Origin: a candidate division FCPU426 bacterium
GTDB taxonomy: Bacteria > Oederibacteriota > JAAXVQ01 > JAUVAV01
Direction: 5' to 3'
Length of the DNA: 64,000 nt
Assembly (NCBI GenBank): GCA_040756875.1
Contig: JBFLYH010000001.1
Location: forward strand, 1,452,399 to 1,516,398
Below are positions 20,384 to 45,680 of the stretch, piece after piece. The notes beneath the pieces are model-generated. The model saw nothing but the letters and a program-made list of their open reading frames with translations, was not told the DNA's origin and made no database searches. Position 1 is the first letter of the stretch; each line of letters opens with the position of its first letter. Position numbers and translations under genes: made by a program.

Positions 20384-22654
20384 TTATTTGACCGGCTTCA
20401 GCGTTCGTTGTTCGAATTTCAAGAAAGCGGCCTCGCGTTTTATTTCCCCGGCCGGCTCGACCGCGGCCTTGCCGGTCACGCCCTGGAAATTCTTCACGCC
20501 GGTCAGCTGTTTCTGAAAATCCTGCCGCTGCGGCTGGCTGGACCGGATGCCAGCCAGGGTTTCGGCCACCAGCTGCAAGGCATCGTACGCCTGCACCGCC
20601 AGGCTGGTGGGCCGGGCCGAATAGGCGCCCTCGAAATCCTTCACGAAGTCCTGGTTGCGGGCCGACGGGTCGTTGATCCAATAGCCGGTGGCCATCACCG
20701 CGCCCTCGAGTTCAGGCCCGGCCTGGCGCAGCAATTCGGGCGCCAGCCAGGCGTCGCATCCGAACAACTGAGGCTTAAGATCGTAAAAAGCCAGCTGGGA
20801 GATGATCAGCACGGCGTCCCGCGCCGGAACCGGCAGGTACAAGGCCTCCAGGTCCTTGAGGTTCTTTTCCGGAGGAATGCTTTTCGTAAAGGTATAGGAT
20901 CCCTTGCGCAATACCTCGCCGGAAGCGGCGCGCAGAAGCTTGATTTCGACCTGGTATTCGATCAGGGTCGGCTCGCCGGGGGCCGGCAGGCCCTTGTCCC
21001 CGGCCTGGGTCACCTGGCCCAAAACCACGTAGCCCACGCCCAGCGCTTCGCCGATGGCCGGGGTTTCCCCGGCCGAAACCGTCAGGCTCGACATCCCCAG
21101 CTTGCGCAGCCCGCGGAACGTTTCCGCCTGGGTCAGCACCTTCAGGCCGGTCTTGGCCGCCAGGGCATAGGACAGCTTTTCGGTCACGAGCTTCCCCACT
21201 TCCTCCTTTTGGGCCATTTCGCCCTCTTCCGCGAAACGCACGATGGCCACCCGGCGGACGGGGATGGGCACCGGAGTGGCCGTGGGGGTCACCTGGGCTT
21301 CCGGCACCAGCAGCTGATGAAATTGCACGGCCGACGTTTCCGCGATCTGTTCCAGCCGCTTGCGCTCCTGCACCTGCAGGTCCTTCATCAGGCCCGGGTC
21401 CACGCCCCCCAACGCCAGCAACTGGGTCTTGAAGTCCGTGGTCCCGGGCGCGTATTCCACCCGTGCAATCACCTCGGCCCCCAGCTTCTTGGCCTTGGCT
21501 TCGAAGGCTTCGGCCAGGGAGCGGTCATACGCCGCCTCGCCGTTCACGATGCCGATCCGCTGGAGGTTGCGGCGCAGGACCACGTATTCGGCCATAGCCT
21601 CTCCCTGCTGCTGGTTGGTGAGCATGTAGCGGAAGAAGTACGGCGAGGCGTCGGTCAGGTCCGGATCGCCGGCCGAGGGCGTAATCAGGGTCACGCGCTG
21701 CCGCCCCAACTGGGGCAGGAGGACCCTGGCCTCGCTCGAAAGCGCCGGACCGATGATGACCATGACTTTTTCCCGGTCCACCAGGTCAGCGAACGCCTGC
21801 TGGGCGCTGGTGCTGTTGCCCGCGGTGTCCGCAGCCACCAGGCTGAGCTGCTCGCCCGGCGCGCGTTTCAGGTTCACCTGCCGCAGGGCCAGCTCCAGCC
21901 CCTGGCGGATGGTCTGTCCAAACGGCGCATACAAGCCCGAGAGCGGCAGCAAGGCGCCGATGCGGAAGCGGTTGACCGGAACCAGTTCCTGGGCCTTGGC
22001 CTTGAGGTCGAAGGCCAGGGCGGCGAACTCGCTCTTGGGATACTGGCTGAGAAACTGTTCGAACAGCTTCACGGCGGCGTCGGGATTGCCCTGGTCCAGC
22101 GTGCGCTTGCCTGTTACGAACAAGGCCTGTTCCTCCCAGGGCGTGCCCGGGTAGCTGGCCCGCACGCGGGCCAAGTCCGCCAGGTCCAGCTCGTCGTTGA
22201 TGATCTGGCGGATCAGGGCTTGGGCCGTAGAAAACGCCAGCGACGTGGCGGGATACGCTTTCAGCAGGCGCTCCAGCGCCGCCAGGGCGGGCAGAGGCCT
22301 TTTATCTTTCACCTCGGCACGGGCTGCCATGACCGAAGCCGGAGCGGCCCACTCGGAGTTGGGGTATTTGGTGGCCAGGGATTGGAACTGGCGCTCCGCG
22401 GCCTGCCATTGGGAGCGGTTGAAGGTCTCCTGCGCGATCCAAAAACGGGAGCCCACGCTTTCCGGATCGTGCGGCCGGCTGGCCACGTCGGCCCGAAACT
22501 GCTCCAGTTCCTCGCTGGAAACCGGAATATACGGATAGCGCAGGGCCGAGGCCGGGCTTTTTTCCAGGTAGCGAGGGGCGCAGCCGCCCATGACCATTCC
22601 CAGCAGCACTCCCAGCGCAACCGCCGCCAGGCGGCGCGGACGATACCCCATCAC
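20384..22654 (-). CDS. LpoA/LppC-like lipoprotein (TPR + type I periplasmic-binding fold) with inserted CsgG/LpoB-like domain
   Basis: MGG-C lipobox; TPRs; IGALLPLSG, IIGP, AYDA, FQGVTG; insert RRVAIVRF...GEALGVGYVVLG. Confidence 0.75.
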   Translation of the reverse strand: MMGYRPRRLAAVALGVLLGMVMGGCAPRYLEKSPASALRYPYIPVSSEELEQFRADVASRPHDPESVGSRFWIAQETFNRSQWQAAERQFQSLATKYPNSEWAAPASVMAARAEVKDKRPLPALAALERLLKAYPATSLAFSTAQALIRQIINDELDLADLARVRASYPGTPWEEQALFVTGKRTLDQGNPDAAVKLFEQFLSQYPKSEFAALAFDLKAKAQELVPVNRFRIGALLPLSGLYAPFGQTIRQGLELALRQVNLKRAPGEQLSLVAADTAGNSTSAQQAFADLVDREKVMVIIGPALSSEARVLLPQLGRQRVTLITPSAGDPDLTDASPYFFRYMLTNQQQGEAMAEYVVLRRNLQRIGIVNGEAAYDRSLAEAFEAKAKKLGAEVIARVEYAPGTTDFKTQLLALGGVDPGLMKDLQVQERKRLEQIAETSAVQFHQLLVPEAQVTPTATPVPIPVRRVAIVRFAEEGEMAQKEEVGKLVTEKLSYALAAKTGLKVLTQAETFRGLRKLGMSSLTVSAGETPAIGEALGVGYVVLGQVTQAGDKGLPAPGEPTLIEYQVEIKLLRAASGEVLRKGSYTFTKSIPPEKNLKDLEALYLPVPARDAVLIISQLAFYDLKPQLFGCDAWLAPELLRQAGPELEGAVMATGYWINDPSARNQDFVKDFEGAYSARPTSLAVQAYDALQLVAETLAGIRSSQPQRQDFQKQLTGVKNFQGVTGKAAVEPAGEIKREAAFLKFEQRTLKPVK

Positions 22655-23583
22655 GGCTCGCTTTCCGTCAGGTATTTTTTCTCGAGCATGATTTCCACCC
22701 GGCGGTTCAACTGCCGGCCGGCCGCGGTGTCATTGGTGGCCACGGGCTGCGACGACCCCATGCCCACGGACGTGAGGCTGTCCAGGGGCACGCCTTTTTG
22801 GTTGAGGTACGTCAGCACGCTCTCGGCCCGGGCTTGGGACAGGGTGTTGTTGAGCAGCACCTCGCCCGTGCTGTCCGTGTGCCCTTCCACGCGGATGCGG
22901 TAGGAGGGATATTCGGCCAGGATCTGGGCCACCTGGTCCAGCGCGGACATGGCGCCGGGCTGGAGCTGCGAACTGCCGCTGTTGAACAGCACGCGGCCGG
23001 ACAGACTGATCACCAGCACCGAGCCCCGCAGCGCGACCTTGGCGTCGCGGATTTTCTGGGCCTTGCGGAGCAGTTCCTCCAGTTCCTTGCGGCGGGCTGC
23101 CTCTGCCGCGGCTATTTTCTGCGCCTCCACCGCCGCCTGCTCGGCTTCCTTACGCTGTATCTCGCTCTGTTGAAGTATTTCCTTGGCTCGCTGGAGTTCA
23201 TTGGCCTGCTGGGCCAGGACCAGCAAGGCCTGCTGTTTGTCTGTCAGGGATTTCTGGGCTGCTTCATACTCCTGGGCCATTTGGCGGGTCAGGCTGCGGG
23301 CTTCGGCGATCCGGGCCTGGGACTGGGCCTGAAAAGCCAGGTCCTCGACCGTGGCAATGGCTTGCTCCGCCGAGAGCGAAGACTCGGTCAAATCCAGCAG
23401 GCGCTTGGCTTCGCGGTATTCCTCCGGGACCAAAAGATCCGCCTTGGCTTTGCGGGCCAGTTCCAGGGCCGCGCGGGCGTCGATCACGGTCTGGGGAACC
23501 ACGGTGGGCACGGTCGCGCACCCGGCCAGCCATGGGCCGGCAAGCGCGGCCACAGCCAGCCCGATCCGAATCAGGCGCCTCAT
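22651..23583 (-). CDS. OmpA-family lipoprotein with DUF4398-like N-terminus
   Basis: LAG-C; coiled coil; VEGHTD, LSQARAESV, NRRVEI. Confidence 0.9.
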   Translation of the reverse strand: MRRLIRIGLAVAALAGPWLAGCATVPTVVPQTVIDARAALELARKAKADLLVPEEYREAKRLLDLTESSLSAEQAIATVEDLAFQAQSQARIAEARSLTRQMAQEYEAAQKSLTDKQQALLVLAQQANELQRAKEILQQSEIQRKEAEQAAVEAQKIAAAEAARRKELEELLRKAQKIRDAKVALRGSVLVISLSGRVLFNSGSSQLQPGAMSALDQVAQILAEYPSYRIRVEGHTDSTGEVLLNNTLSQARAESVLTYLNQKGVPLDSLTSVGMGSSQPVATNDTAAGRQLNRRVEIMLEKKYLTESEP

Positions 23584-24038
23584 GGCTTCACCTCCCCGGC
23601 CGCGGGCGCGGCCTGGGCGGGCGGCGTGCTCCCGGCGGATTGGGGCAGGATCGCGGCCGGCTGCGAATACGCCGCGATCTGGGATTCTACGGCCGCCACC
23701 TGCTCTTTTACAGCGTTGAGCTTGGCTTCAGCCGCTTTTTGCTCGGTCTTGGCCTGGGCCACGCGGGCATAGATGGTGGCTTTCTTGGCGAATTGGAAGG
23801 TACGCTCGAAATCTTTATTGGCATAGGCGTCCAGGGCAATGGCCTTGGCATCCTGGGCCTGCCTGAGGTCCTCAGCAGCATAGGTTGCGGCGCCCGCTTG
23901 TTCCGCGGTTTCGACCGCCACCCGGGCGTTGGTCAGCTGTTCCACGGTCGAACGGGTGTCCACGCTTCCACAACCGGCGACCCAACCGGCCAGGACCATC
24001 GCCCCGCCGGCTGCCATCCACGACTTTTTCCGAAGCAT
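23580..24038 (-). CDS. DUF4398-like lipoprotein
   Basis: VAG-C; AEQAGAATYAAEDL helical motif; typical partner upstream of OmpA genes. Confidence 0.75.
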   Translation of the reverse strand: MLRKKSWMAAGGAMVLAGWVAGCGSVDTRSTVEQLTNARVAVETAEQAGAATYAAEDLRQAQDAKAIALDAYANKDFERTFQFAKKATIYARVAQAKTEQKAAEAKLNAVKEQVAAVESQIAAYSQPAAILPQSAGSTPPAQAAPAAGEVKP

Positions 24039-24170
24039 TATTCGCCTCCCGAGTCAGATTCACAGCAACCGAATGCCTCATGCAAACTGGGGTATTTTAG
24101 TATAAAAGCCGCCTGGGCAAAAGGCAAAAAAGCGGCCTGCCCCGGTTGCGGGGCGAAAAAGGGCAAAAAA

Positions 24171-24206
24171 AAGGTGGAAGCCCGCGCTGTGGCGGACTTC
24201 CACCTT
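24171..24206 (-). terminator. Rho-independent terminator
   Basis: aaggtggaag...cttccacctt stem followed by a T8 tract on the minus strand. Confidence 0.75.
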
Positions 24207-24225
24207 GACCACATCCAAATGTTGA

Positions 24226-24435
24226 TTACTCGGCAGCCGGAGCGGCCTCTTCCGTCGTCGGAGCAGCTTCACCAGCCGGAGCAGCTTCCTCACCCGTGGG
24301 CATACCCTCTTCAGCGGCAGGAGCTTCCATCGCGGGAGCTTGCTCAGTGGCTTCCTGTTTCGGAGCGCACCCCGCAACCATGAGGAGCGAACCTCCCATC
24401 ACCACCATCAAAAGCATCGCCAGCAATTTTTTCAT
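24226..24435 (-). CDS. Small acidic Ala/Pro/Glu-rich lipoprotein
   Basis: MKK...VAG-C; strong SD AGGAGGTG; followed by a terminator. Confidence 0.75.
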   Translation of the reverse strand: MKKLLAMLLMVVMGGSLLMVAGCAPKQEATEQAPAMEAPAAEEGMPTGEEAAPAGEAAPTTEEAAPAAE

Positions 24436-24579
24436 TGATTTGTCACCTCCTTCCCGCTCGAAGTGGCCTAACCTTGAAAAATTGGAGAAAGTCTAACGCC
24501 CTACCCCTGGTTTGTCAATATCTGTTTTGGGGTTTTTTACACCCCTTCACTCGAGCACCGCAATTTGCTGAGGAGAGCT

Positions 24580-25770
24580 TCACTTACCGGCCCGGGCTAC
24601 AATGCGCGCCGTCTCCCGGGCGATCATATAATCCTCGCGGGTCGGAATGACCAACACCTTCACTTTTGACGAAGGGGCGTGAATATGGCCTTCCCGGCTG
24701 ATTAAAGCCCGGTTTTTCGCCGCCTGCAGGCGGACGCCCAAGCCTGCCAGGCCCTGGCAAATGGCCTGCCGCAGGGGCGGGCTCTTCTCGCCGATGCCGG
24801 CCGTAAAGACCAGCGCATCTACCCGGCCCAGCACCGCGGCAAACGCCCCCACATACTTCTGGATGCTGTAGGCGAACACCTCCAGCGCCAGTTTGGCCCG
24901 CGCATTCCCCTTGCCGGCCTGGGCCAATACTTCCCGCAGGTCGTTGGAAACGCCCGACAACCCGAGAATGCCGCTCTGTTTGTTCAACAAATTGTCCACC
25001 TGGGCGGGCGTCAGCCCTTCCCGTTCCATAATATATGGAATGATCGCCGGGTCGATATCCCCGCAGCGGCTGCCCATCACCACCCCGGCCAGCGGAGTCA
25101 GCCCCATGCTGGTATCCACGCAGCGGCCACCACGAACCGCGGCCAGGGAAGACCCGTTGCCCAAGTGCAAGGTGATGAGATTCAAGCTGGCCGGCGGCTT
25201 CCGCAGGACCTGGGCGGCGCGCTGGGCCAGGTACTTGTGGGAGGTGCCGTGGAACCCGTACTTGCGGATCTGCAAGTCCGTAACATAGCGATACGGCAGG
25301 GCGTACGTGTAGGCCTTGGCCGGCATGGTCTGATGGAAGGCGGTGTCGAAGACGGCAACCTGGGGCGTGTGGGGCATCATTTTCAGGCAGGCTTCCATGC
25401 CCACGTAATTGGCGCGGTGCAGGGGAGCGAGTTCCCGGCCGATCGGGTTTTTCAAGACTTCGCCGTCCACGAGCGCCGCATCGGTGTAGCGGGGGCCGCC
25501 GTGAACCACGCGGTGGCCGACCGCCTCGATGGCCTGTACCGAGGGCACGACGCCGTCCTCCACCAGGCTGTCCCGCATCAGCCCGATGGCCTGTTCGTGG
25601 TTGGCCACTGGCCCTTCCACCGCGGGACGGCTGCGCCGGGCCACCACCCGGGTGAACCGCGACTGCCTTTCGCCGATTTTTTCCACGAGCCCCGAAGCCA
25701 GCTCTTCCTCGCCCTTGAACAAGGTGTACTTCAGCGAGGAACTGCCGGTATTAATCACCAATATCAGCAT
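24580..25770 (-). CDS. ackA: Acetate kinase
   Basis: NTGSSSLKY, GHRVVHGG, VFDTAFH, YGFHGTSH, DTSMG, FTAGIGE. Confidence 0.96.
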   Translation of the reverse strand: MLILVINTGSSSLKYTLFKGEEELASGLVEKIGERQSRFTRVVARRSRPAVEGPVANHEQAIGLMRDSLVEDGVVPSVQAIEAVGHRVVHGGPRYTDAALVDGEVLKNPIGRELAPLHRANYVGMEACLKMMPHTPQVAVFDTAFHQTMPAKAYTYALPYRYVTDLQIRKYGFHGTSHKYLAQRAAQVLRKPPASLNLITLHLGNGSSLAAVRGGRCVDTSMGLTPLAGVVMGSRCGDIDPAIIPYIMEREGLTPAQVDNLLNKQSGILGLSGVSNDLREVLAQAGKGNARAKLALEVFAYSIQKYVGAFAAVLGRVDALVFTAGIGEKSPPLRQAICQGLAGLGVRLQAAKNRALISREGHIHAPSSKVKVLVIPTREDYMIARETARIVARAGK

Positions 25771-25897: not shown

Positions 25898-27013
25898 TCA
25901 GAAATAGAGAATGGCGCGAAGCAGGATCAGGAAACCCTTGCCTTCGTTTTCCGACAATTTCAAATTCTTCTTCGCCTGGGAATAATTGGGATTGATCGCC
26001 AGAGCGCGTTTGAACTCGTTGATGGCCCGGTTGAAGAGGAACCGGCATTGGATCAGGTAAGCCACGCCCAGGTCGTTGTGGATATCCACGTACTGGGGAT
26101 GTTTTTCCAGAATGTCCTCAAGCTTGGCGATGTAATGCTCCGTGGATTTCCGGTCCACGCCCTCTTCGCCGTATTTCAAGCGCAGGTAAAACTCGTGGTA
26201 AACCTCGCTGCCGGCGTCGGACATGACCGCGGATTTGCTTTCCAACATGGCCTGGCGGGCTTCCGCGTATTGATCCTTGGCCAGGTAATTCTGGGCCACC
26301 TTGAAATACTCGTTGTTGAACATCAGGTTGTGCTGCGCCGCTTCAGCCAGGTGGGCGTTGATCTGGTCGCGGGCTTCCGGCGCCAGGCCGCTGTCAGTGA
26401 CGGCCTTCGAAACCAGGCACAGGCTCAGGTTGAAGTGGGCCTCGGCATAGCGGCCGTTCAGGCTGAGTGCCTGTTCGAATTCCTGCAAAGCCTGGTCGTA
26501 ACGTTCGGCCTTGAGCAACGCCAGGCCGTAGTTATTGTGCACGTCAGGATAGTTGGGTTTCAGGGAAACCGTGCGTTCAAACACTTTCAGGGCGTCAGCC
26601 GTTTTGTCCTCCAGCAGCAGCGCCAGGCCCAGATGGTTGAGGATCGGAGCGTTGTTGGGATCCAAGGCCAGCGCACGCTTGAATTCCCCGATGGTTTCCT
26701 TGGCCAGCCCGCTGCTGAGAAAGACCAGGCCCAGCTTGTAGTTGGAATCCACGTCCGGCTTGGATTCCAGCTTGGCCGAAATTTTCATGAGTTCCTGGAG
26801 GCTGACCACGCGTTCCTCGTGGTGCCGTTTGACCAGCTCCATCAGTTTCTCGTCCGTCAGCTCGGGGTTGTAGTCGATTTCCCGGGTGCTGATCACGCGG
26901 TCACGGTCGTTGAGGTTGATCACGATGCGGTGGATGGAATCGAAATTCATGGTGCGCACCGTGTAATCGTATTGTTTGCTGTGGATGGTGGTATTGAAGC
27001 TGAAGCCGCTCAC
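25898..27013 (-). CDS. Cytoplasmic TPR protein, third gene of the partner-switching operon
   Basis: TPRs (PNYPDVHNNYG, YAEAHFNL, YVDIHNDLG); GTG start 20 bp after the STAS stop. Confidence 0.8.
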   Translation of the reverse strand: MSGFSFNTTIHSKQYDYTVRTMNFDSIHRIVINLNDRDRVISTREIDYNPELTDEKLMELVKRHHEERVVSLQELMKISAKLESKPDVDSNYKLGLVFLSSGLAKETIGEFKRALALDPNNAPILNHLGLALLLEDKTADALKVFERTVSLKPNYPDVHNNYGLALLKAERYDQALQEFEQALSLNGRYAEAHFNLSLCLVSKAVTDSGLAPEARDQINAHLAEAAQHNLMFNNEYFKVAQNYLAKDQYAEARQAMLESKSAVMSDAGSEVYHEFYLRLKYGEEGVDRKSTEHYIAKLEDILEKHPQYVDIHNDLGVAYLIQCRFLFNRAINEFKRALAINPNYSQAKKNLKLSENEGKGFLILLRAILYF

Positions 27014-27032
27014 GTGCAGGCCCCTTTTCTTT

Positions 27033-27848
27033 CTATCGTCCGCGGGCGTATTTGAAACGCGCCGCTTTGGTGGCCAGATCATTGTAACGCAGCTCGGTAC
27101 GCACCTCTCCCCAGCCGACTTTGGGCTGGTTGCCGCGTCTCTGGTTCAGTTCACTCTTGATTTTCCAGGCCCCCCAATCCGGATGAGCCTTCACGACGGA
27201 ACGGATGCGGTCGATCAGCGGAATTAAACCGGCGGGATTGACCGGAACTCCCGCAGACGCAACTGCTGCGGCCGGAGCAGGGGCAGGAGCAGGAGCAGGC
27301 GCGGCTGCAGGAGCAGGCGCCGGAACAGGCCTGGCTGCGGCCTGAACCGGGGCCGGAGCTGGGCGAGAGGCTGCAGGTGCGGGTGCCGGCCGGGATGCGG
27401 GAACCGCGGGTTCGATCTTGACCGGCGCGGGTTTGGGCGCAGCCGGCCGGGCGGCCGCAGGGGCCGGCCGGGCAGCCGCGGCTGCAGGCGCGCTATCGCC
27501 GAAACTGCGCACCGCATCGTCCACGGAGGCGGTGGCCGTCAAAATAGTCGCGAATTCCAGGAGTTCATACACTTCGTTGACCGTTTCGGACATGCAGGCC
27601 AGCTTCAGGTCGCCGCGGTGCGTGCGTATGTTCTTGATCTCGGAAATGAAAATTCCCCATCCGGCCGAGCTGATGTATTCAACGTTTTTCAGGTCGATGA
27701 CGATCTTATACCGCTGCTCGCGCAACAGACCCTGAATGACCCGTTCCAGCTCGCTGGAAGTGGTGGTGTCAATATAGCCCGCGATCTTGACGACGCCGAC
27801 TTCCTGGTTTATGCCGCTATTTTCAACGGAAATCTGGATGCCTTCCAT
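27033..27848 (-). CDS. STAS anti-anti-sigma protein with Ala/Pro linker and C-terminal IS481-like HTH
   Basis: GYIDTTT, DLKNVEYISSAG phospho-Ser motif; C-terminus HPDWGAWKIKSEL...LATKAARFKY. Confidence 0.85.
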   Translation of the reverse strand: MEGIQISVENSGINQEVGVVKIAGYIDTTTSSELERVIQGLLREQRYKIVIDLKNVEYISSAGWGIFISEIKNIRTHRGDLKLACMSETVNEVYELLEFATILTATASVDDAVRSFGDSAPAAAAARPAPAAARPAAPKPAPVKIEPAVPASRPAPAPAASRPAPAPVQAAARPVPAPAPAAAPAPAPAPAPAAAVASAGVPVNPAGLIPLIDRIRSVVKAHPDWGAWKIKSELNQRRGNQPKVGWGEVRTELRYNDLATKAARFKYARGR

Positions 27849-27894
27849 TGCCCCTCCTGTCGAAGCGGTCCGATAGTATCACAGCCAAACTTGG

Positions 27895-30324
27895 CTAGTC
27901 AACTTTCTTCTTTTTTTCCGAATAAGCCAGCCTTTCCTCGCGCGTGGCCAGGCGCAGGCGTTTAAGTTCCTCGTACACCATCTTCTCGCTGAGGTGGTCC
28001 ACCTCGAACCCGGCCTCGGACATGGCCTGCAGCAGGCGCGTAGGCCCTAAGTCAGGGTTGGAGATGATCAATTCCAGGATCTGCCTCCGCTCCTCCAGGG
28101 ACAATTGCTGCATTTGGGCGTCCTTGCGCTGAACCGTTTCCTTCAATCCCCGCAGCCCGTACTTGTCCCGCAGCTGCTTCAGGCGGTAATACGTGGTGGG
28201 CGACACGTTCAAGTGCCGGCAGGCTTCCCGCACGGGCACGCCCTGGCGTTCCACCAGGTAGAACAGCTTGCGGCGCAGATTGAACTGCACGTCGTCCGCC
28301 ATCATCTTTTCCTTGATGGCCACGCAGGTGATGTCGTCATTTTGCGGATAATCCTCGGTGAAGCGCGCGATATCCTCGGACAGTTTCTGCACGAACTCCT
28401 CGGCCGACAAGTCATGGTGCTGCCGGACCAGGTCCAGGAGCCGCTTCTCTCCGAACTGTTCCCGCCGGGGATTCATGGCCTCGGTGATGCCGTCCGTGTA
28501 CAGGAGCAGCACGTCCCCTTTCTTCAGCTTCACGGTCTCCTGGGTCAGCGATTTCTGGAACAAATCGGGATTGGGAAGGTCGATCCCCACGGGAAATCCC
28601 CGGGGCTTGAGATAATAAATCTGGTCCGTCTCCTCGCGGTAGAGGATCATGGGGTTGTGCCCCGCGCAGGTGTATTGGATGATGCGCCGCCGGGAATCCA
28701 GGATGATATAGAACATGGTCACGAACATGCCTTTTTTCATGTCGCGGGTCACGAAGTTGTTCACCTTGGCCATGACGTCCGTGGCGTTGTGGTTGTTGCG
28801 GGCTTCCAGGCGCAGGGCGGTGCGGATCATGGTCATGACCAGCGACCCGGGGATGCCTTTGCCGGACACGTCCGCTACGGCGATGCCCAGCACGTTGTCA
28901 TCCACCCACACGAAGTCGAAATAATCGCCGCCCACTTCCTTGGCCGAGCGGTACATGGAAGAGACGTCGTAGCCTTCGATCTGCGGCAGCTCCCGCGGCA
29001 GCAGCGTATGCTGGATTTCCTGCGCCACCTGCATTTCCTGCTGGATGCGTTCCTGTTCCAGTAGGTTCCGCTGGGCCTGGTTGAAGCGGCGGGTCATGTC
29101 GTTGAAGACTTTGGCGATCTGGCCGAACTCGTCGTTGCTTTGGATGATGATTTGATGGTCCAGGCGGCCCTGGCTCACGGCCAGCATGCCGTCCGTGAGT
29201 TTTCGGATCGGCGCCACCAGGAACGTCATCAGAAAGTACGCGCCCGAGGTGCTGACCACCATGGCCACGAGGAACATGATCAAGGCGCCGCGCCGGCCTT
29301 TCCGGATCTCCTCGCCGATGGCGGCTTCCCGCACGCCCACAAAAGCCGTTCCCAAGCGCAGGTCGCCCAGGAAGATCGGATAGGCGATTTCATGCACTTG
29401 GCCGGCCTGGGGATCGTCGATCTCGTTGCGGGCCGCCTCGCGGCCATGCGGCAGTTTAGCGCCCGCCGGCGGGACATAGGTGGTAAACAGGCGGGTGGTC
29501 TGCGAGTGGGCCCAGATGACGCCGCTGTTGTCCAGAATGAAGGCATACGCCAGCTTGGGATTGGTGCGGATCAGGGTCTTCACCACCGTGGCCAGATGCA
29601 GGTCGTCCTGTTTCAGCAGGTAATTTTCCGCATCACGGGCCAGCTGCCGGGTCAGTTCGGTGGTATTGGACAAAATCTCCGAACGCAGGCTTTGGGCCAG
29701 GTTGGTGAACATATAAGCGAATATCACCAGCACCAGTACGGCCACCGAGGCGGTGACCGGGAAAAGATACTTGAAGCTGACGCGGCTGAAACGGTGGGGT
29801 TTGGCCGCGGCTTCGAACGGCACCGGCAGGGTCGTTTCCGGCAAATGGGCCGGCGCGATCAGCGGAACAGGTTCCCGGGTGCGCTTGAGCAGGCGCAGCT
29901 CGTTCTCGCCGCGGACGGTCTGATATTCGGTCTCGTCCATCAGTTTGCGGATAAACCAGATGCCGAGGCCGCCGCGCTTCCCGATCTCCACGTACCGGTT
30001 CAAATCGGGCGTTTTGGACTTTTTCCATTCGAAGCTCTTGCCTGAATCCCGGATGAAAATCTCGAGTTCCCCTTCCCGACGGTCCACGCGCAGGCGGATC
30101 ATCCCGGGGTCCATGCCTTTGTAGGCGTGCCGGATCACGTTGGAACAGGCCTCGTCCAGGGCGAGCTTGATGTTGTTCATCTCGTTCGGGTTGAAATGGG
30201 CCTCGGCCGCAGCCCGCGTGATGAAGTCGCGGATGTCCCCCAGATGGCGCTCGTCGGCCGGCACTTCCAGGTCATACGTCTGCAGGATGGGTTTTCGGAA
30301 CAGGCCTTTCAATAAACCGGGCAA
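27895..30324 (-). CDS. Membrane RsbW-type kinase / HAMP / SpoIIE (PP2C) phosphatase / HTH fusion
   Basis: DEACSNVIRHAY, DSG, GGLG; two TMs; HAMP DEFGQIA; GGDYFD, DVSGKG, YTDGITEA, DDIT; C-terminal tandem HTH. Confidence 0.88.
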   Translation of the reverse strand: MPGLLKGLFRKPILQTYDLEVPADERHLGDIRDFITRAAAEAHFNPNEMNNIKLALDEACSNVIRHAYKGMDPGMIRLRVDRREGELEIFIRDSGKSFEWKKSKTPDLNRYVEIGKRGGLGIWFIRKLMDETEYQTVRGENELRLLKRTREPVPLIAPAHLPETTLPVPFEAAAKPHRFSRVSFKYLFPVTASVAVLVLVIFAYMFTNLAQSLRSEILSNTTELTRQLARDAENYLLKQDDLHLATVVKTLIRTNPKLAYAFILDNSGVIWAHSQTTRLFTTYVPPAGAKLPHGREAARNEIDDPQAGQVHEIAYPIFLGDLRLGTAFVGVREAAIGEEIRKGRRGALIMFLVAMVVSTSGAYFLMTFLVAPIRKLTDGMLAVSQGRLDHQIIIQSNDEFGQIAKVFNDMTRRFNQAQRNLLEQERIQQEMQVAQEIQHTLLPRELPQIEGYDVSSMYRSAKEVGGDYFDFVWVDDNVLGIAVADVSGKGIPGSLVMTMIRTALRLEARNNHNATDVMAKVNNFVTRDMKKGMFVTMFYIILDSRRRIIQYTCAGHNPMILYREETDQIYYLKPRGFPVGIDLPNPDLFQKSLTQETVKLKKGDVLLLYTDGITEAMNPRREQFGEKRLLDLVRQHHDLSAEEFVQKLSEDIARFTEDYPQNDDITCVAIKEKMMADDVQFNLRRKLFYLVERQGVPVREACRHLNVSPTTYYRLKQLRDKYGLRGLKETVQRKDAQMQQLSLEERRQILELIISNPDLGPTRLLQAMSEAGFEVDHLSEKMVYEELKRLRLATREERLAYSEKKKKVD

Positions 30325-30458
30325 TGCAGCAGTCCTTCCTTTGGGTTTCCCCTATTGTACCATAACCTAACAGGGTGCTGAAAAACCCATATATTCCGCT
30401 AGCACCCTGCACTGACCCTCTATGACAAATAAAGCTGGCAGGGCCAGCACCTGACGGT

Positions 30459-30493
30459 TACCCCATGAAAAATCCCCGATTTTTCACGGGGTA
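30459..30493. terminator. Long hairpin downstream of the PorV-like gene (probable terminator)
   Basis: taccccatgaaaaatc-ccc-gatttttcacggggta. Confidence 0.55.
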
Positions 30494-30546: not shown

Positions 30547-32139
30547 CTATTTTTTCACGGGTGCCGGCGCGGGCGGTTTTTCTTCCTCTTCGACCTCTGA
30601 TTGGATCGCCTGCATCCGGGCGATCCGGGTCCGCGCCTCGTCGATATTGCGGATCACCAGCAGGTTGTTGGGTTCTGTTTCCAATATCTTATTCCAGACT
30701 AAAATGGCTTTGACGAAATCGTTGGCCACGTAGAAATCGATGCCCTGATAGTACAGCTGCAGTGATTTGTCGTTCATAAAGCGGGTCTGACCGCCGAGCT
30801 GCTGCCGGGTCCGGGCCAGATAAAGCTGGACCTGGAGGTAATTGGGATCGTACTTTTCCACGGTCTCGAACTCCACCAGCGCCTGCTTGAAATTCTTTGT
30901 CAGGTAATCCTCGATGCCCTGGAAATAATGGAGCGCCTTGAAATATTCGTCCGCCACCGCGGCCTTCCGCTGTTCGGCCTGGCGCCGGCGTTCGGCGGCC
31001 AGCTGCTGCTCTCCTTGGACGATCAGCGCCTGTTTTTCCCGGCGGTGCCGGCGCTCGGTGTTGCGCATGATCTGTTCCATGGCCTCGCTGGCCTTGGCCA
31101 CGGCTTCCTGCGCGCGGCGCTGAGCTTCCTTGTCCAGTTCGGCCTCGCGCCGGCGCTCCCGTTCGGCTTTCTGTTCGGACAGCCGGGGCCCGAACCGGTA
31201 GGACAGGGTGACCCGGTGAGTAAGCCCCAGGGCTTCCGAGGCCAGGGCGTAATCCAACGCCAAGCCGGCGTACTGCACGCCTCCGCCGGCTGTCCATCCG
31301 TCCGCGTTCAGGCCGCCGCGCAAGGCCAGCAGATCCCACACGCCGTACTCCAGGCCCCCCGAGAATTGCGACGACCGCCAGGTAGAGCGCTCCCAGGCGC
31401 CGCAGACCAGGAATTGCTGCTTCAGGGAGTCTTGGGTGCGGTAGCGATAAGCCATACCGGCCTTCCAATTCAACGGAATCCGGTCTTCAACCGCTCCCAG
31501 GCGCGTGACCGGGCCAACCAGATTTTGCAGCATGAGGCCGAAGGTCAGGCCGCTCCAATCGAATCCGCCCTGGCTGAAGGCATCGCGCGGAAGACGGTAA
31601 TGCAGGCCGAGATCCAGCCCCACGCCCGCGTCGAAATCGCCCAGCAACCGCATCTGGTCGATTTTCACCGTCGCGCCGGCCCGCAGTCCCCCGAAAAGCT
31701 CGCGGCCGTATCCCAGCAGATACTCGCGCAGATCCAGGCTGCCTTCGACGCCGGTAAGGTGCGAGCGTTCGTCACGGACAAGAATGCCGCCCGAAGCCAG
31801 GCGTACGGCGCCCAGGGCGAAGGTCCCCCAGTCCAGCAAGGGATACGCCACGCCCAAAAAATCATAGGGCGTTTCGTAGAACAGGCTGATGTGCATGGCA
31901 GAGATTTCCACCTGGTCCAACAAAGCCAGCCCCGCCGGATTCCAGAATAAAGACGTGACGTCCTCGGCGACCGCGGTGTAGCCGGAGCCCAGGGCCAGCG
32001 CGCGGGAGCCCGCGCCCAATTCAAACGGGCTGTTGGTCCCGGCATCCGCGACCACGGCCGCGACCGGCAGGGGCGACAGCCACGCGGCTGCCAGCCACAG
32101 CCCGCAGAGTAAGTGCTTTGTCCGTTTATCAACCGGCAT
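30547..32139 (-). CDS. PorV/PorQ-like outer-membrane beta-barrel with C-terminal coiled coil and TPR
   Basis: Signal peptide; GAGSRALALG...AEDVTSLFWNPAGLA; alternating beta strands ending HRVTLSYRF; TPR tail. Confidence 0.8.
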   Translation of the reverse strand: MPVDKRTKHLLCGLWLAAAWLSPLPVAAVVADAGTNSPFELGAGSRALALGSGYTAVAEDVTSLFWNPAGLALLDQVEISAMHISLFYETPYDFLGVAYPLLDWGTFALGAVRLASGGILVRDERSHLTGVEGSLDLREYLLGYGRELFGGLRAGATVKIDQMRLLGDFDAGVGLDLGLHYRLPRDAFSQGGFDWSGLTFGLMLQNLVGPVTRLGAVEDRIPLNWKAGMAYRYRTQDSLKQQFLVCGAWERSTWRSSQFSGGLEYGVWDLLALRGGLNADGWTAGGGVQYAGLALDYALASEALGLTHRVTLSYRFGPRLSEQKAERERRREAELDKEAQRRAQEAVAKASEAMEQIMRNTERRHRREKQALIVQGEQQLAAERRRQAEQRKAAVADEYFKALHYFQGIEDYLTKNFKQALVEFETVEKYDPNYLQVQLYLARTRQQLGGQTRFMNDKSLQLYYQGIDFYVANDFVKAILVWNKILETEPNNLLVIRNIDEARTRIARMQAIQSEVEEEEKPPAPAPVKK

Positions 32140-32148
32140 GATGCATCC

Positions 32149-35100
32149 TCATTTGATCACCGCGATTTTCAGCATGTGCCGCTTGGTTTCCCCGCCGGCG
32201 GCGGGGGTGATTTCGAGCACGGCAAAGTAGAGACCGTTGAGAACCACCTGACCGCTGCCATTGCGCCCGTCCCACGGGATGTGGCGCAGGATCGAAGCGC
32301 CGGTCTGCGTTTCCTCGCCGACCAAAACCCGCACCAATTCACCCACGACGTTGTAGATCTTGAGGCTGACGCGGGCGTCACTTTCCAGGAAATAATCGAT
32401 CGATGTGCTTTGCCGTCCGGCCGCGAACGGATTGGGATAATTGATGTAAGAAGAAGCCAGCGACCGCCGGGTGATGACCACTTCGTTCGAGAACATCGGG
32501 AAAACATCCCCAAATGCCGGGCGCACCTGCATGCCCACGTCGTCCAGGAAGCGGCAATCCACCTCGGCGTCGGTGGAGACGCCCAGGCGCAAGGATTCCC
32601 GGCTCGAGGCCGGGTTCAGGTTGACCTGAATGCGCAGAATGTGGGGTTCATCGGGCGCGATGGTCACCGCCAGCGCCGGGAAGCCGACGAACTGGCGGTC
32701 CGTGGCGGACGTCACGTTGACCGAAACCAGTATGGCCGCCCCGTCCCAGACCGTGATGGTGGAAAGAATGTCATTCGCCGGAATGCCGGCTCCCAGGTGA
32801 TCCTGAACGGTCAAAGTAACGCCGCGCAGTTGATACAAGGCCGATCCGGTGGAGTTGGGATTGGTGAATTCCAATTCCAGCATATCCACGCCCGGTTCGC
32901 CGGTAATGGCGGTGATCGGCGCCAGCGAGGCGTGGCCGACATAAACGTAGGGATTGCCCGGCCGCGGACCCGTATCCACGGGTATCGGGTCCGTCACGCC
33001 GTCCAAAACGAACGTATTGGTCGTGTCCTGTGCGGTGATGGTGTAGGTCAGGTTCGGCTCCATGAACCGGACGTTGAACGTTGCTTCGCCGTTGGCCAGC
33101 GTGACCGTGGCCGGCAGATCCCGCACCTGGTTGGGGGCGGCGGAGGTGGAGAGCGCCAGGCTGTCGTTCAACGGCACGATCTGGTAGGTCGTCATGTTCA
33201 GGACCCTGACCGTGATGGAAACCAGGTAGCCGGCATCCACCGGCACAATGACGCCGGCCTTGCCCGGCGGAGTTCCGGGCGTGAAGAATTCGTTGGGCAC
33301 GATCAGCACCAGCTGGTACACCGGCGTCGGCGTCACGGTGGGCGTGATCGTGCTTGTCGGCGTAATGGTCTGGGTTTGCGTGGCCGTGGCGCTCGGCGTA
33401 GGCGTCGAGGTTTGCGTCGAGGTCATGGTCACAGTCTCGGTTTGAGTGAACGTTCCGGTCTGCGTATAGGTCAGCGTTTGCGTGCTGGTTCCGGTCTGGG
33501 TGGCGGTGACAGTATACGTCGGCGTCTGGGTGAACGTGGGCGTAGAGGTGGCCGTGTCGGTGGGCGTGGCCGTGAACACCGGCGTATCCGTCGGGGTCGC
33601 CGTAAAGGTGGCAGTATCCGTGGGCGTCACGGTAAAGGTCGGCGTTACGGTGGAAGTGGCGGTGATGACCGACACGTATTGCACCTTGGTCACCGTAGTC
33701 GTGGTTTGGTAGGTACCGTCGTTAAGATAAGAGCTCCAATAATAGACACCGCCCGTACCCGGCGCGGTGGCTGTAAGGGTTATGCTGTCGTAGGCGCCCG
33801 CCGACCAGGGCGAGGCGTACGTAATTTGGATTTGGCTTCCGGCAAATGAAACCAATCCGCCCAACACGTTCGAGGAGGGTGTCATGGGCACGGTCCAGCC
33901 GTTGGGAATGGATATATACACTTGGTTAATGTCTCCCAGCGAGCGCGCGATGACCGTGTATTCGAAGTTTTGCGTTTGATTGAGCAACACCGTATTGGGC
34001 TGAATATGAGCATCAGCCGCCGGCGTAATCGTCGAAGTGACGGTGGGTGTCGCGGTCACAGTCGACGTATCCGTCGGCGTAGGTGTAACGGTCGGAGTAT
34101 CCGTGGCCGTGGGTGTCGCGGTCTGGGTCGCGGTCGAGGTCGCCGTATCCGTCGGCGTGGATGTGAATGTCGCCGTGTCCGTCGGCGTGGATGTGAACGT
34201 CGCCGTGTCCGTCGGCGTCGCCGTGAACGTCGCCGTATCCGTCGGCGTCGCTGTGAACGTCGCCGTATCCGTCGGCGTGGCTGTGAACGTCGCCGTATCC
34301 GTCGGCGTCGCTGTGAACGTCGCCGTATCCGTCGGCGTGGCTGTGAACGTCGCCGTATCCGTCGGCGTGGCTGTGAACGTCGCCGTATCCGTCGGTGTCG
34401 CTGTGAACGTCGCCGTATCCGTCGGTGTCGCCGTGAACGTCGCCGTATCCGTCGGCGTCGCTGTGAACGTCGCCGTATCCGTCGGCGTGGCTGTGAACGT
34501 CGCCGTATCCGTCGGCGTGGCTGTGAACGTCGCCGTATCCGTCGGCGTCGCTGTGAACGTCGCCGTATCCGTCGGCGTCGCCGTGAACGTCGCCGTATCC
34601 GTCGGCGTCGCTGTGAACGTCGCCGTATCCGTCGGTGTCGCCGTGAACGTCGCCGTATCCGTCGGTGTCGCCGTGAACGTCGCCGTATCCGTCGGCGTCG
34701 CTGTGAACGTCGCCGTATCCGTCGGCGTCGCCGTGAACGTCGGGGTATGGGTGGATGTGGCGGTTGCAGTATAAACCTGTACATATTGCACTTTGCTCGC
34801 CGGCGTGGCAGCGGCATAAGCGCCGTTGTTTAAATATCCGCTCCAGTAATAGTAACCGCCTGTGCCCGGCGCGGTCGCCGTCAGCGTGATGCTGTCAAAC
34901 GCGCCGGAAGCCAGGGGCGGCGAATAGGTCACCATGATCCTTCCGCCGTTGAATGCCACGTTCCCCATCTGCACGTTCGAAACCGGCGTGCCTGGCACTG
35001 ACCAGCCCGCGGGAATTTCGATGTACAGCGTATCGACCACCCCGCCAGTGGTAATCAGCACATACTCAAAATCGCGGATTTGCCAGGGATCGCTGGCAAT

Positions 35101-38022: not shown

Positions 38023-38029
38023 TTATGTC

Positions 38030-38199
38030 GCCTGCGGTGTTGGTGATGGAGCCGCCAATCCCGAACCTACGAGCAGAAAAAGGGAGCCGTGTCCGGCAGG
38101 CCAGTGCGTTCTCCCCGATGGGAACGCCAAACCCTGCCCTTTGGTTCCCACCTGTATAACAGGGTTCAGTGCATGGCTGCTTCACACGGCATCGCGGGT
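38030..38199 (+). ncRNA. ssrS: 6S RNA
   Basis: Closing stem cctgcggtg/catcgcggg; gaacc/ggttc and gggagcc/ggttccc helices around a central bubble; ~170 nt; upstream of rny as in many lineages. Confidence 0.78.
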
Positions 38200-38241
38200 T
38201 TATTTTTCCCAGCCGGACTATTGCGCCCCAGGGGTTGTTTC

Positions 38242-38506: not shown

Positions 38507-40063
<1,557 letters not shown>

Positions 40064-42320: not shown

Positions 42321-43247
42321 TCAGTCAAGCACCTGTTTTTTCCACCGGGTTTCCCAATTTCCGTCTCCACCCAGATCCTTGACCGCCTGCTGCAACCGCT
42401 CGGGTTCAGACTTCCCGGCCGAGCCATCCAGGCTGTTACGGAGCCGCCGCGCCACTTCAGCGGCGTTCGTTTGCGGCAGCTCCCCGCAGGCAGCAGCCAG
42501 CAAGCCGGGATGCAGGCGAAAATCCGCTGCCAGCTTGAGCAGAGCTGCGGGGCTGGCTTGCAACCCGGCCATTCGTTGCCCGGCCTCTTCCCTGCTCCAG
42601 GCGTCGAACCGCTCCAAGTCATAATGAGTATCGGCAGACAACGCAGGTAGATTGAGCTCAGTCAGGCCCGGCGTTCGCGAACCGGAAAGGTTGCCGGCTG
42701 ATCCGGAGATGTATGCCTGGCCGTCGAGACGCGCGGGCTGGCGACGCCGTGCATCCGGCAGTTTGCCGCTGCTTACGGATTGGATATCCCCCTCTGCCAC
42801 GCCCCTCACCTGTCCGCGATAGTCGGGTTGGGAACCCGGCGCAGGCGTTTCGACCTGTTCCAATGATTCCGCCGCTGGTTGCGGCTTCACCGCTTTATCC
42901 GTCCTGGCCGCCTGCCGGTCCATGGCCACGAACACGCCGATCAAGCCCAGCAGCACCAGGCCGGCGGCGGTCAGGCCTGCGCCCGGCGAGGAAAAACCGC
43001 CTCCAGGCCGTTGCGGGCCCTTGGCGCCGGTCTTCAGCCGCGCCATGATTTTTTCCCGGAATTCCGCAGGGACCTGCGCCAGGGGCGGCGCGGCGGCGTT
43101 TAGCTGTCCGGCCAGGGCGCGCAATCCCTCCAGCTCCACGCGGGCCTCGGGGTCGCGCGCCAGCAGTTCTTCGGCCTGGCGTCGCTGTTCAGGGCTGACC
43201 TGGTTGTCGAGATAGGCGGACAACAACTGTCTCTGTTCGTCGGTCAT
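42321..43247 (-). CDS. Transmembrane anti-sigma factor
   Basis: LLSAYLD...RDPEAR anti-sigma N-terminus without zinc ligands; single TM; overlaps sigma gene by 4 bp. Confidence 0.82.
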
Positions 43248-43849
43248 CGGCCGGGTCCCCCTTTTCTTCCGAGCAAACGCCGGAGGTTTTGGCGGGCGCG
43301 GTACAAACAGGACGCCACAGTGGTCAGGCGCAGTCCCATGACTTCGGCGATTTCATCATACCGCATCCGCTCGAAATGGCACAGAACAACCGCCTGCCTC
43401 TGTTCCGGCGGCAGGGCGGCGACCGCTTCTGCCACGCGGACAGCAAAATCTTTGCGGTCCAGGGCGTCGTCCGGCATTTCGGCCTTGGGGTCGCGCAGGA
43501 CCGGGGGCGGCGCCTCTTCCGTGCCGGCGTCCAGGGAAACGGTCCGCCGGTGGCGGTGACGTTCCAGAATGCTGAAGCAGTGGTTGGTCGTCACCCGGTA
43601 CAGCCAGGTCGAAAATGCCGAACGTCCCTTGAAGCTTTTGATCCGTTTAAACACCTTGAGAAATATTTCCTGCGCTTCATCCAGGGCGCTTTGATAATCC
43701 CGCAGGTAGCGCAGGGCCAGGGTCACGACGCGCTGTTCATAGCGGCTGATGAGCACGTTGAAGGCTTCGGTATCGCCCTTCTGGCAGCGGCTGATGATGT
43801 CCGCTTCGGGCAGTTGCGCGTAGTGGGGATCCAGGGGATAGGCGGCCAT
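43244..43849 (-). CDS. ECF sigma-70 factor
   Basis: [30 protein letters not shown]...V...LYRAR. Confidence 0.95.
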
Positions 43850-43860
43850 GGCGTCCTACG

Positions 43861-44757
43861 CTACATTCCCTGCAGGAGGCGGATGATGATGGGTCCGAAG
43901 AGCACGAGAAAAACCACGGGGAAGATGAACAGAATGAGGGGAAACAAAAGCTTAACCGGGGCTTCCAGCGCCTGCTTCTCGATTTCCTGCGACCGCTTGG
44001 TGCGCAACTGCGCGGCCTGGTTCTTAAGGGTCGCGGCCACGCTGACGCCGAGGCGCTCCGCCTGGATCAGGGACGTGACGAAAGTGCCGAAGGTGGGGTC
44101 GTCCACGCGCTGGGCCATGGCTTCGAGGGCGTCGCGGCGCGCCTGGCCCATTTGAATGGCCCGTAGGAGCTCCCGGAACTCCACGGCCAGGTAGCCGCGG
44201 CGGCCGCGCTCCATGAACACGCCCACCGCCTGCTCGAAATTCAAGCCGGCTTCCATGCACGAGGCCAGCAGGTCCAGGGCCGATGGCAGTTCCTGCAGGG
44301 TTTTCCGGCGCCTGAGCTGATCCTGCTCCCGCAGCCAGAGATCCGGCAGGAAAAACGCGGCTGCTCCCAGCGCCAGGCTGGCCAGCCAGCCGGCGCCCAG
44401 CAGCCACCCCAGCAGCAGCCCTCCCAGCAGGCTCAGCTCCTTGGCCGCCAGCCATTCGGCGCCTGAGCGCTGCGCCCAACGCGGATAATAGACCAGCTTT
44501 TTCCTCAATTCGCGCTCCCAGGCCGGAGCCACCCAGCGCACCTGCCAGCCGGCCAGCACGGGAAGGGTGCGGAAAAACAAATCAACCAGCGGTTCCTTGC
44601 GGCGGGGCCCAGGGGCAGCCACTGCGGACCCGGCCACTTGCGAGCCAACGGCCACGGCTTCCCGCTGCAACCGGCCGGCCTGCAGCCGGCGCAGCAGGTC
44701 TTGGGCCAGCAGGAACACAGCGACAAAAATCAGCAGTGGAATCAGCCAAGCAAACAT
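43861..44757 (-). CDS. tadC: Tad inner-membrane platform protein TadC
   Basis: LPSALDLL...EAG, QAERLG, APVKLLFPLILFIFP. Confidence 0.9.
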   Translation of the reverse strand: MFAWLIPLLIFVAVFLLAQDLLRRLQAGRLQREAVAVGSQVAGSAVAAPGPRRKEPLVDLFFRTLPVLAGWQVRWVAPAWERELRKKLVYYPRWAQRSGAEWLAAKELSLLGGLLLGWLLGAGWLASLALGAAAFFLPDLWLREQDQLRRRKTLQELPSALDLLASCMEAGLNFEQAVGVFMERGRRGYLAVEFRELLRAIQMGQARRDALEAMAQRVDDPTFGTFVTSLIQAERLGVSVAATLKNQAAQLRTKRSQEIEKQALEAPVKLLFPLILFIFPVVFLVLFGPIIIRLLQGM

Positions 44758-44764
44758 AAGAACC

Positions 44765-45670: not shown

Positions 45671-45680
45671 GGTCCGTATT

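Follow-up and report, generated by a model that had tools for sequence, protein, structure and literature searches.

Genes and domains of the operon

The window analyzed here is a 64,000-nucleotide (nt) stretch of contig JBFLYH010000001.1 from a candidate division FCPU426 bacterium, and its subject is a partner-switching operon of three genes, which encode a membrane receptor, a STAS protein and a tetratricopeptide repeat (TPR) protein. All three genes lie on the minus strand, and window coordinates are used throughout. Open reading frame (ORF) calls placed them where the first-pass annotation of this DNA had put them, and Pfam together with hydropathy backed the architecture that it had read from the 809-amino-acid (aa) receptor: an RsbW-type HATPase, two transmembrane (TM) segments around an extracytoplasmic domain, HAMP, a SpoIIE/PP2C phosphatase and a tandem helix-turn-helix (HTH).

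The receptor gene (27895-30324) was defined by its ORF and translation, by Pfam and NCBIfam matches and by 230 relatives, and encodes the order kinase-TM-Cache-TM-HAMP-PP2C-tandem HTH. Its start codon is TTG, preceded by a good ribosome-binding site (AGGAAGGA). The RsbW-type Ser kinase domain (HATPase_c_2, residues 21-146, 29887-30264; Pfam E 1.9e-28) lies ahead of TM1, on the cytoplasmic side. It aligns to Bacillus subtilis RsbW (6m36, E 1.1e-15) and retains the E..N..HAY, DxGxSF and GGLG stretches, which we take to be the ATP-binding boxes. RsbW and SpoIIAB are its best NCBIfam models, and every match to an RsbW model falls under the curated cut-off. TM1 (residues 182-213), a periplasmic sCache_3_2 domain (212-342, Pfam E 5.9e-15) and TM2 (346-373), the TM segments being called by hydropathy, together occupy 29206-29781 and are followed by a HAMP domain (residues 364-413, 29086-29235; Pfam E 1.9e-11). 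The PP2C/SpoIIE phosphatase domain (residues 476-671, 28312-28899; Pfam E 1.2e-50) matches 189 of the 192 profile positions, contains the metal-site motifs GDYFD, ADVSGKG, YTDGITE and NDDIT in its translation, and aligns to the structure chains of RssB (3es2), Rv1364c (3ke6, E 3.2e-13) and 6k4e.

Since the two hydrophobic segments bracket the Cache domain, the kinase, HAMP, phosphatase and HTH tail are predicted to be cytoplasmic and the Cache domain to be outside. Pfam found no Response_reg receiver (REC) domain in the 809-aa receptor, and the TM-sCache_3_2-TM-HAMP segment stands between the two enzymes instead. One membrane protein thus apparently bears both an active RsbW-type kinase and an active PP2C phosphatase. 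The first-pass annotation had a single receptor writing and erasing the STAS phosphate; the part of this that stands is the presence of both catalytic domains, with their motifs kept, next to or fused with STAS, and the two activities on the STAS serine are a prediction.

The second gene (27033-27848) encodes a 271-aa STAS protein. Its STAS domain (residues 1-118, 27495-27848) gave a Pfam match at residues 14-112 (E 4.8e-16) and contains the ISSAG motif, the second Ser of which, S61, aligns with the Ser of the DSAG/DSSG motif in the TM1442 and SpoIIAA chains. By this alignment S61 is the equivalent of the phospho-serine. Among 30 STAS orthologues from several phyla, S60, S61, A, G, W, G, I, F and I are invariant. 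An Ala/Pro-rich linker of 87 aa (residues 119-205, 27234-27494), with 38 Ala and 26 Pro, joins the STAS domain to a basic four-helix tail (residues 206-271, 27036-27233), identified by hhalign, by AlphaFold2 and by its charge as a paralogue of the second HTH unit of the receptor. The net charge of the tail is +9 in the window and +7 to +11 in the window's clade, and the STAS domain is acidic (-7). An ISSAG-bearing STAS protein with an Ala/Pro linker and an HTH of its own, as first annotated, is therefore what the second gene encodes.

The third gene product is a TPR protein, as annotated earlier, by its Pfam TPR families. The third ORF in full spans 25898-27082, and a GTG codon at 27013 lies 19 nt past the STAS stop codon. 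This GTG is most likely the start of the TPR gene (25898-27013), predicting a 371-aa protein that matches eight relatives. Hydropathy and an alignment of 30 sequences indicated that the protein has no TM segment and carries a conserved hydrophobic C-terminal motif, and we place it in the cytoplasm. The motif, encoded at 25901-25960 on the minus strand, reads GFLILLRAILYF in the window and GIxxLLKALL in distant relatives; it is kept across phyla and may be an amphipathic membrane or docking helix.

Origin of the HTH units

The receptor tail (residues 676-809, 27898-28299), delimited with Pfam, NCBIfam and AlphaFold2, comprises two units, HTH1 (~684-730) and HTH2 (~743-805), with a floppy linker between them. 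Pfam found HTH_28 at residues 694-728 (28.1 bits, above cut-off), with HTH_23 and HTH_32 slightly below their cut-offs. In NCBIfam, the IS481 transposase model aligned with its N-terminal 112 positions to residues 684-797 (E 7.2e-13), and the tail also matched the N-terminal parts of IS630 and IS3 transposase models. No DDE catalytic domain was found in the receptor: there was no rve or DDE match in Pfam, and NF033577 matched over no more than positions 2-112 of its 284, scoring 48.7 bits (cut-off 224). Transposases of the IS481/IS630/Tc1 type likewise have a bipartite N-terminal HTH (HTH_28 plus HTH_32). The receptor differs from them in lacking DDE, in having the module fixed in a signaling protein across phyla, and in the duplication of the second unit onto STAS.

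The STAS tail has no Pfam match of its own. BLASTP aligned it weakly to receptor HTH2 (E 0.002), and hhalign matched it to the receptor-tail alignment with a probability of 98.8% (E 9.8e-17, 57 columns). When the whole genome was searched with profiles, the profile of the receptor tail hit nothing besides itself but the STAS tail, and the profile of the STAS tail hit nothing besides itself but receptor HTH2; neither profile found a transposase copy bearing the module anywhere in the genome. By these profile comparisons the STAS tail is a duplicate of the second HTH unit of the receptor, the pair being the sole two copies in the genome, a relation newly recognized here.

Both AlphaFold2 models are confident (pLDDT 87 each): in that of the receptor tail, a floppy stretch at positions 57-63 connects two helical units, and that of the STAS tail consists of four helices. 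HTH1 of the receptor is strongly basic. The fold matches of the receptor tail are bipartite transposase DNA-binding domains (TnsB 8aa5, Z 6.2; Tc3 1u78, Z 5.7; IstA 8b4h; Mu; Mos1 3hos), and those of the STAS tail are generic HTH and winged-HTH domains, winged-HTH repressors included (Z ~5). Searches with both tails returned nothing at Foldseek E 0.001 or VIA Z 8, leaving a generic HTH resemblance alone. When solved structures were searched with the receptor-tail profile, the best match was Lin0861 (E 0.0019), which covers HTH1 only.

A word-based search with the STAS tail found just 13 close relatives, and the wider family became visible by an exhaustive profile search, which gave 165 cluster representatives at E <= 0.001. 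Eighty of the 165 were scanned with Pfam. Among these 80, 35 are STAS proteins with the match at the C-terminus, and the tail of one of the 35 (P0162) is called HTH_Tnp_Tc3_2 by Pfam itself; others include transposase-type HTH arrays without a DDE domain. Fusions of HTH_28 plus HTH_32 among the 80 involve GT2 glycosyltransferases (five), protein C of the type II secretion system (T2SS; two), a penicillin-binding protein (PBP) transpeptidase, a TPR protein, a DnaJ domain and an AAA_30 ATPase. In the glycosyltransferase fusions, which are metagenome proteins of 1100-1500 aa, the module is N-terminal. The metagenome proteins with HTH_28 plus HTH_32 on GT2, PBP, T2SS protein C or TPR are P0182, P0210, P0247, P0258, P0273, P0214, P0209, P0269 and P0275.

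Conservation and architectural classes

A scan of one genome per species yielded 230 stretches encoding a receptor relative, and locus counts were taken from the best 80 of these, so that the counts are biased to closer relatives. The closest records among the 80 (60-88% identity) are labeled Firestonebacteria, Goldiibacteriota, FCPU426 or 'uncultured bacterium', and the remaining ones (41-47% identity) Krumholzibacteriota, Latescibacterota or Eisenbacteria. Within the window's GTDB phylum, a full-length receptor match (E <= 1e-100) was present in 35 of the 61 sampled genomes, in 32 of the 45 high-quality genomes and in all nine from the same family. The receptor family is single-copy.

The HTH tail of the receptor was found in 80 of 80 loci, across several phyla and with invariant residues. 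A STAS coding stretch lies within 1 kb downstream of the receptor tail in 71 of the 72 loci with at least 600 nt of downstream DNA, the sole miss being L052, and a TPR homologue lies downstream in 44 of the 48 loci with at least 5.5 kb. The trio of genes is thus conserved in other genomes, which had been in question when the operon was first annotated.

An architectural census of the 80 loci, carried out with profiles built from our own alignments, distinguished a fused and a split class. In the fused class (54 of 80 loci), the receptor, its HTH and three STAS domains form one reading frame, and two plain STAS genes also follow the TPR gene. This fusion ties kinase, phosphatase and substrate together. 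The split class has a separate STAS gene, which carries a low-complexity linker and an HTH2-type tail in 14 loci (the window's clade, L050 and loci labeled Eisenbacteria) and is without a tail in four (L019, L031, L034 and L053). One locus (L039) is broken or ambiguous, and in another (L007) STAS is cut at the contig end. No STAS was seen in six loci. Five of these run out of contig at the receptor gene or shortly behind it, and the sixth is L052, with 1.1 kb downstream. STAS is therefore joined to an HTH2-type unit in two permuted forms, with the unit before STAS in the fused class and after it in the 14 split loci. The STAS domain of the window is 51-63% identical to the free STAS that follows the TPR gene of the fused class and is nearer to it than to the fused copies; within the window's clade, identity of the STAS copy is 62-92%. 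A frameshifted or split pseudogene of the fused form was ruled out for the window, both genes being intact and kept as separate genes in 14 loci.

Two further features of gene order were observed. A gene for a ParA/MinD-like ATPase (AAA_31) directly follows the fused receptor in 47 of the 80 loci, all of the fused class (e.g., L023:10147-10884); neither the 18 split loci nor the window has it. After the TPR gene of the window come genes for acetate kinase, a DUF4398 protein and an OmpA-family protein (22651-25770, minus strand); because the same set recurs in L004, L006 and L014, this downstream synteny is confined to the window's clade.

Surface-protein genes upstream of the receptor

Upstream of the trio, two more genes, missed in the first-pass annotation, belong to the conserved unit: one for a PorV-family protein and one for a giant surface protein. 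A PorV-family homologue is present upstream in all 65 loci with at least 1.8 kb of upstream DNA, and the C-terminal part of the giant protein in all 51 with at least 4 kb. The PorV-family gene of the window (30547-32139, minus strand) encodes an outer-membrane barrel of the PorV/PorQ family, which matches NF033709 over residues 40-316 (96.7 bits; cut-off 90) and has a coiled-coil and TPR C-terminus. In L023, L031 and L050 this gene overlaps the receptor gene or directly adjoins it; in the window a 222-nt gap, which contains a hairpin, separates the two. The hairpin is a near-perfect inverted repeat with 16-nt arms and a 3-nt spacer (30459-30493) and is probably the terminator of the PorV-family gene.

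The first gene of the cluster (32149-37533, minus strand) encodes the giant surface protein, whose translation of 1794 aa has a signal peptide, Thr/Pro repeats and a sorting-domain-like C-terminus (FlgD_ig, 28.8 bits, above cut-off; CHU_C and Por_Secre_tail weak). Most of it consists of ~10-residue Thr/Pro/Asp repeats of the TPTDTPTFTV type, broken by three copies of a globular unit of ~110 aa. From this composition it is probably a mucin-like, glycosylated surface protein.

A 6S RNA gene (38026-38204, plus strand; Rfam RF00013, 66.8 bits, full length) lies between the giant gene and the RNase Y gene (38507-40063). Elsewhere in the genome, PorV/PorQ models gave 44 matches in 3.2 Mb, 33 of them above cut-off, which is a very large expansion, and a SprA-like ORF of 2149 aa (C1:865312-868770) matched the SprA model in pieces, each under cut-off.

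Sigma factors in the neighborhood and in the genome

The genome (3.22 Mb in seven contigs) is estimated to be 100% complete. Neither the scanned neighbors nor a genome-wide Sigma70_r2 search revealed a sigma gene within 13 kb of the operon in the window, in agreement with the first-pass annotation, which had seen none in or beside it. The nearest Sigma70_r2 match, 13 kb away, is an extracytoplasmic function (ECF) sigma factor (43244-43849) followed by its own zf-HC2 anti-sigma factor; the two (42321-43849, minus strand) adjoin two genes for T2SS protein F (43861-45826, minus strand) and are unrelated to the operon. Homologous operons also lack a SigB/SigF-type sigma factor: Pfam found no sigma family at E <= 1e-5 among 81 neighboring ORFs of 11 loci. 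These 81 were drawn from 98 ORFs of 12 loci, the scan excluding seven of L008, seven receptor ORFs, two TPR ORFs and one short end ORF.

In the whole genome there are 13 Sigma70_r2 matches, including ORFs of 226, 243 and 259 aa, the size of group 3 factors, and no match to a SigB/F/G-class model above cut-off (the best reached 129 bits against 234). The genome also contains nine STAS matches, five SpoIIE matches and several RsbW-type kinases. Other partner-switch sets, in which SpoIIE, STAS and HATPase_c_2 matches lie close together, were found at C1:882952-885181, C1:33820-36683, C1:202008-203207, C2:676287-677252 and C2:695341-697196; one of their ORFs has STAS and HATPase_c_2 in frame, and by coordinates none of the sets has an adjacent Sigma70_r2 match.

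Relation to known partner switches

The first-pass annotation had taken the logic of this switch to be undescribed. That view is not supported, given SypE/SypA, HsbR/HsbA and CapK/CapS. Because of these precedents, one-chain kinase plus phosphatase, sigma-less output and STAS-HTH output are each not new.

In Vibrio fischeri, SypE (N-terminal kinase, REC, C-terminal PP2C) and SypA constitute a one-polypeptide kinase/phosphatase with a sigma-independent STAS output, according to two reports (PMC10120452, PMC8256260), and SypA is the downstream partner, whose own target the former gives as unknown. The system resembles the one here in that an N-terminal RsbW-like Ser kinase and a C-terminal PP2C domain in one chain act on a neighboring single-domain STAS protein, in that STAS is downstream and no sigma factor is involved, and in its location in a cell-surface (polysaccharide/biofilm) locus. 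SypE, however, is soluble, a response regulator that has a REC domain at its center, whereas the receptor here has a TM-Cache-TM-HAMP center, which points to direct periplasmic sensing as the input. SypE/SypA are also without HTH units, an Ala/Pro tether and a TPR partner, and the neighbors here are the PorV-family and giant-protein genes, not syp genes.

In Pseudomonas aeruginosa, HsbR of the HptB pathway acts on HsbA either as kinase or as phosphatase, and the phosphorylation of Ser56 decides whether HsbA pairs with FlgM or with the cyclase HsbD (PMC5085249). In that account too a single protein is kinase and phosphatase for a STAS protein, and none of the partners described is a sigma factor. 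HsbR differs from the receptor in being soluble and REC-controlled, without HTH units or a membrane sensor. Its domain order is REC, PP2C, kinase.

CapS, a repressor, consists of STAS plus a winged HTH, and its dimer is broken on phosphorylation by the RsbW-like CapK, as stated by Chambers et al. (EMBO J 2026, PMC13373217). Here as there, a STAS domain with a C-terminal HTH-type domain would be the direct output of an RsbW-like kinase, and in CapS, by that account, phosphorylation of the STAS serine alters DNA binding. The winged HTH of CapS, in the same account, is MarR/ArsR-like and packed on STAS, whereas the tail here is of the transposase-type HTH2 and sits on an 87-aa flexible linker. 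CapK is described there as HTH-STAS-GHKL, activated by single-stranded DNA, with neither a phosphatase nor a membrane part, and CapK/CapS as lying beside immune operons, whereas the switch here lies beside surface-protein genes.

Two other kinds of system share parts of the architecture. In Rv1364c of Mycobacterium tuberculosis a single chain comprises a sensor, PP2C, an RsbW-like kinase and STAS, which resembles the fused class here, but the protein is soluble, PAS-sensing and SigF-linked, with a different domain order and no known HTH units. SiaA/B/C/D and RsbU-type systems likewise have a membrane phosphatase with TM and HAMP-PP2C parts, and the SiaA model NF038263 matches receptor residues 348-670 (E 2.2e-24, far under cut-off); they differ in that the kinase is a separate protein and there is no HTH tail.

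The literature searched, which did not extend to subscription journals, contained no paper on the receptor family, and within it the exact receptor architecture had not already been characterized. What is distinct here is the Cache-HAMP input between the two enzymes, the transposase-derived bipartite HTH of the receptor, the HTH2 duplicate on a tethered STAS, the TPR partner and the link to the PorV-family and giant genes. The system is a real, conserved and widespread uncharacterized variant of sigma-independent partner switching, and the principle itself is not new.

Proposed mechanism and alternative explanations

With moderate confidence, we read the 809-aa protein as a membrane receptor that is also a bifunctional partner-switch enzyme of the SypE kind, with an HTH-borne DNA-binding output towards the neighboring surface-protein genes. 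An output through HTH modules had been proposed in the first-pass annotation, and it stays a prediction. The periplasmic Cache domain would sense a ligand, and its signal would pass via TM2 and HAMP to the PP2C phosphatase. The balance of kinase and phosphatase on the one chain would then set the phosphate on Ser61 of the neighboring STAS protein, so that this protein, not a sigma factor, would relay the signal. Both sets of HTH units would most likely bind nucleic acid, and the phospho-state of STAS would alter DNA binding, as in CapS; the co-conserved PorV-family and giant surface-protein genes are the likely targets. The cytoplasmic TPR protein would be a further conserved partner, and the output could run through the HTH units or through the TPR protein. 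We infer both enzyme activities on Ser61, the ligand, the direction of signaling, DNA binding and the target genes from domain content and gene order.

A nucleic-acid output is favored because the modules fall in DNA-binding families, are basic and are universal on the receptor, because STAS is always joined to or beside one of them, and because CapS provides a precedent. Several observations weigh against our reading of the operon. The fold matches to DNA-binding domains are middling (Foldseek E > 0.4, VIA Z <= 6.2), and the HTH2-type unit also occurs on GT2, PBP transpeptidase, T2SS protein C and TPR proteins, none of which is a transcription factor. The 87-aa flexible tether is unlike the rigid STAS-winged HTH of CapS and would also fit docking. 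The tail is not universal, since STAS is plain in L019, L031, L034 and L053 and the free STAS genes of the fused class are also tail-less; a tail-borne output is for this reason not the general mechanism. The DNA upstream of the genes offers no conserved site either: neither the palindrome at 30459-30493 nor a 9-nt inverted repeat at 30371-30409 is kept in L008 or L014, and the 450-nt stretches ahead of the giant gene have no 8- to 10-mer in common between the window, L087, L088 and L090, in a comparison of distant genomes in which L088, with a run of N, was unusable. Lastly, the 13 Sigma70_r2 matches of the genome, with their three ORFs of group 3 size, leave candidates for a sigma factor encoded elsewhere.

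The main rival, doubtful in our judgment, is that the HTH2-type units are protein-protein adaptors and that the STAS tail anchors STAS non-covalently to the receptor or to the TPR protein. Such anchoring would replace the covalent fusion of most relatives, STAS would swing on its Ala/Pro tether between the kinase and phosphatase sites, and the output would be post-translational, for example export or anchoring of the giant surface protein via the PorV-family and TPR proteins. Consistent with docking are the tethering in two permuted forms, the dispensability of the tail in some clades, the length and Ala/Pro richness of the linker, and the two units being a matched pair that is unique in the genome. 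The presence of the HTH2-type unit on envelope machines (GT2, PBP and T2SS protein C) and on TPR proteins in metagenomes and the co-conservation of the TPR and PorV-TPR genes also fit, and BtrU/V/W controls secretion rather than a sigma factor, according to PMC8256260. On the other side, the sequence families and best fold matches are all of DNA-binding HTH types, and HTH1 and the STAS tail are strongly basic. When complexes of the TPR protein with the STAS domain and with either tail were predicted, the score was 0.23, against a mark of 0.32, which counts neither for nor against docking. An extended form of docking, which we regard as rather unlikely, would have the HTH2-type plug on GT2, PBP, T2SS-C and TPR proteins wire envelope machines to the switch while the matched pair leashes STAS at the receptor, with control of export or anchoring exerted post-translationally and not by transcription.

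It is improbable that the operon works as a canonical anti-sigma switch, in which the kinase domain would sequester a sigma factor encoded elsewhere and free it when unphosphorylated STAS binds, the HTH units being accessory. Such a role would suit a kinase domain whose closest models are those of RsbW and SpoIIAB and whose closest structure is RsbW 6m36, in a genome with those 13 Sigma70_r2 matches. It is opposed by the lack of a sigma factor among the 81 ORFs of 11 loci and within 13 kb in the window, by the absence of any SigB/F/G-class match above cut-off and by the failure of all kinase matches to reach the curated cut-offs of RsbW models; the characterized dual kinase/phosphatases SypE and HsbR do not themselves hold a sigma factor. 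That the HTH units are a decayed, functionless remnant of an inserted transposase gene is highly improbable. In its favor, IS481, IS630 and IS3 transposases, by their N-terminal parts, are the best family matches; against it stand the presence of the tail in 80 of 80 loci over several phyla, its invariant residues, the lack of a DDE domain and of any transposase copy with the module in the genome, and the 62-92% identity at which the STAS copy is kept within the clade.

Implications

The receptor tail is a clear example of domestication, in which a signaling protein has taken over the DNA-binding domain of a transposase. Compared with SypA, whose target is still a gap (PMC10120452), the DNA-binding switch proposed here has its downstream candidates written into the proteins and the gene order, namely the HTH duplicate on STAS, the TPR protein and the neighborhood of PorV-family and giant surface-protein genes. 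Given how widespread this single-copy family is, an understanding of one member would explain a common coupling of periplasmic sensing to the cell surface in these uncultured groups.

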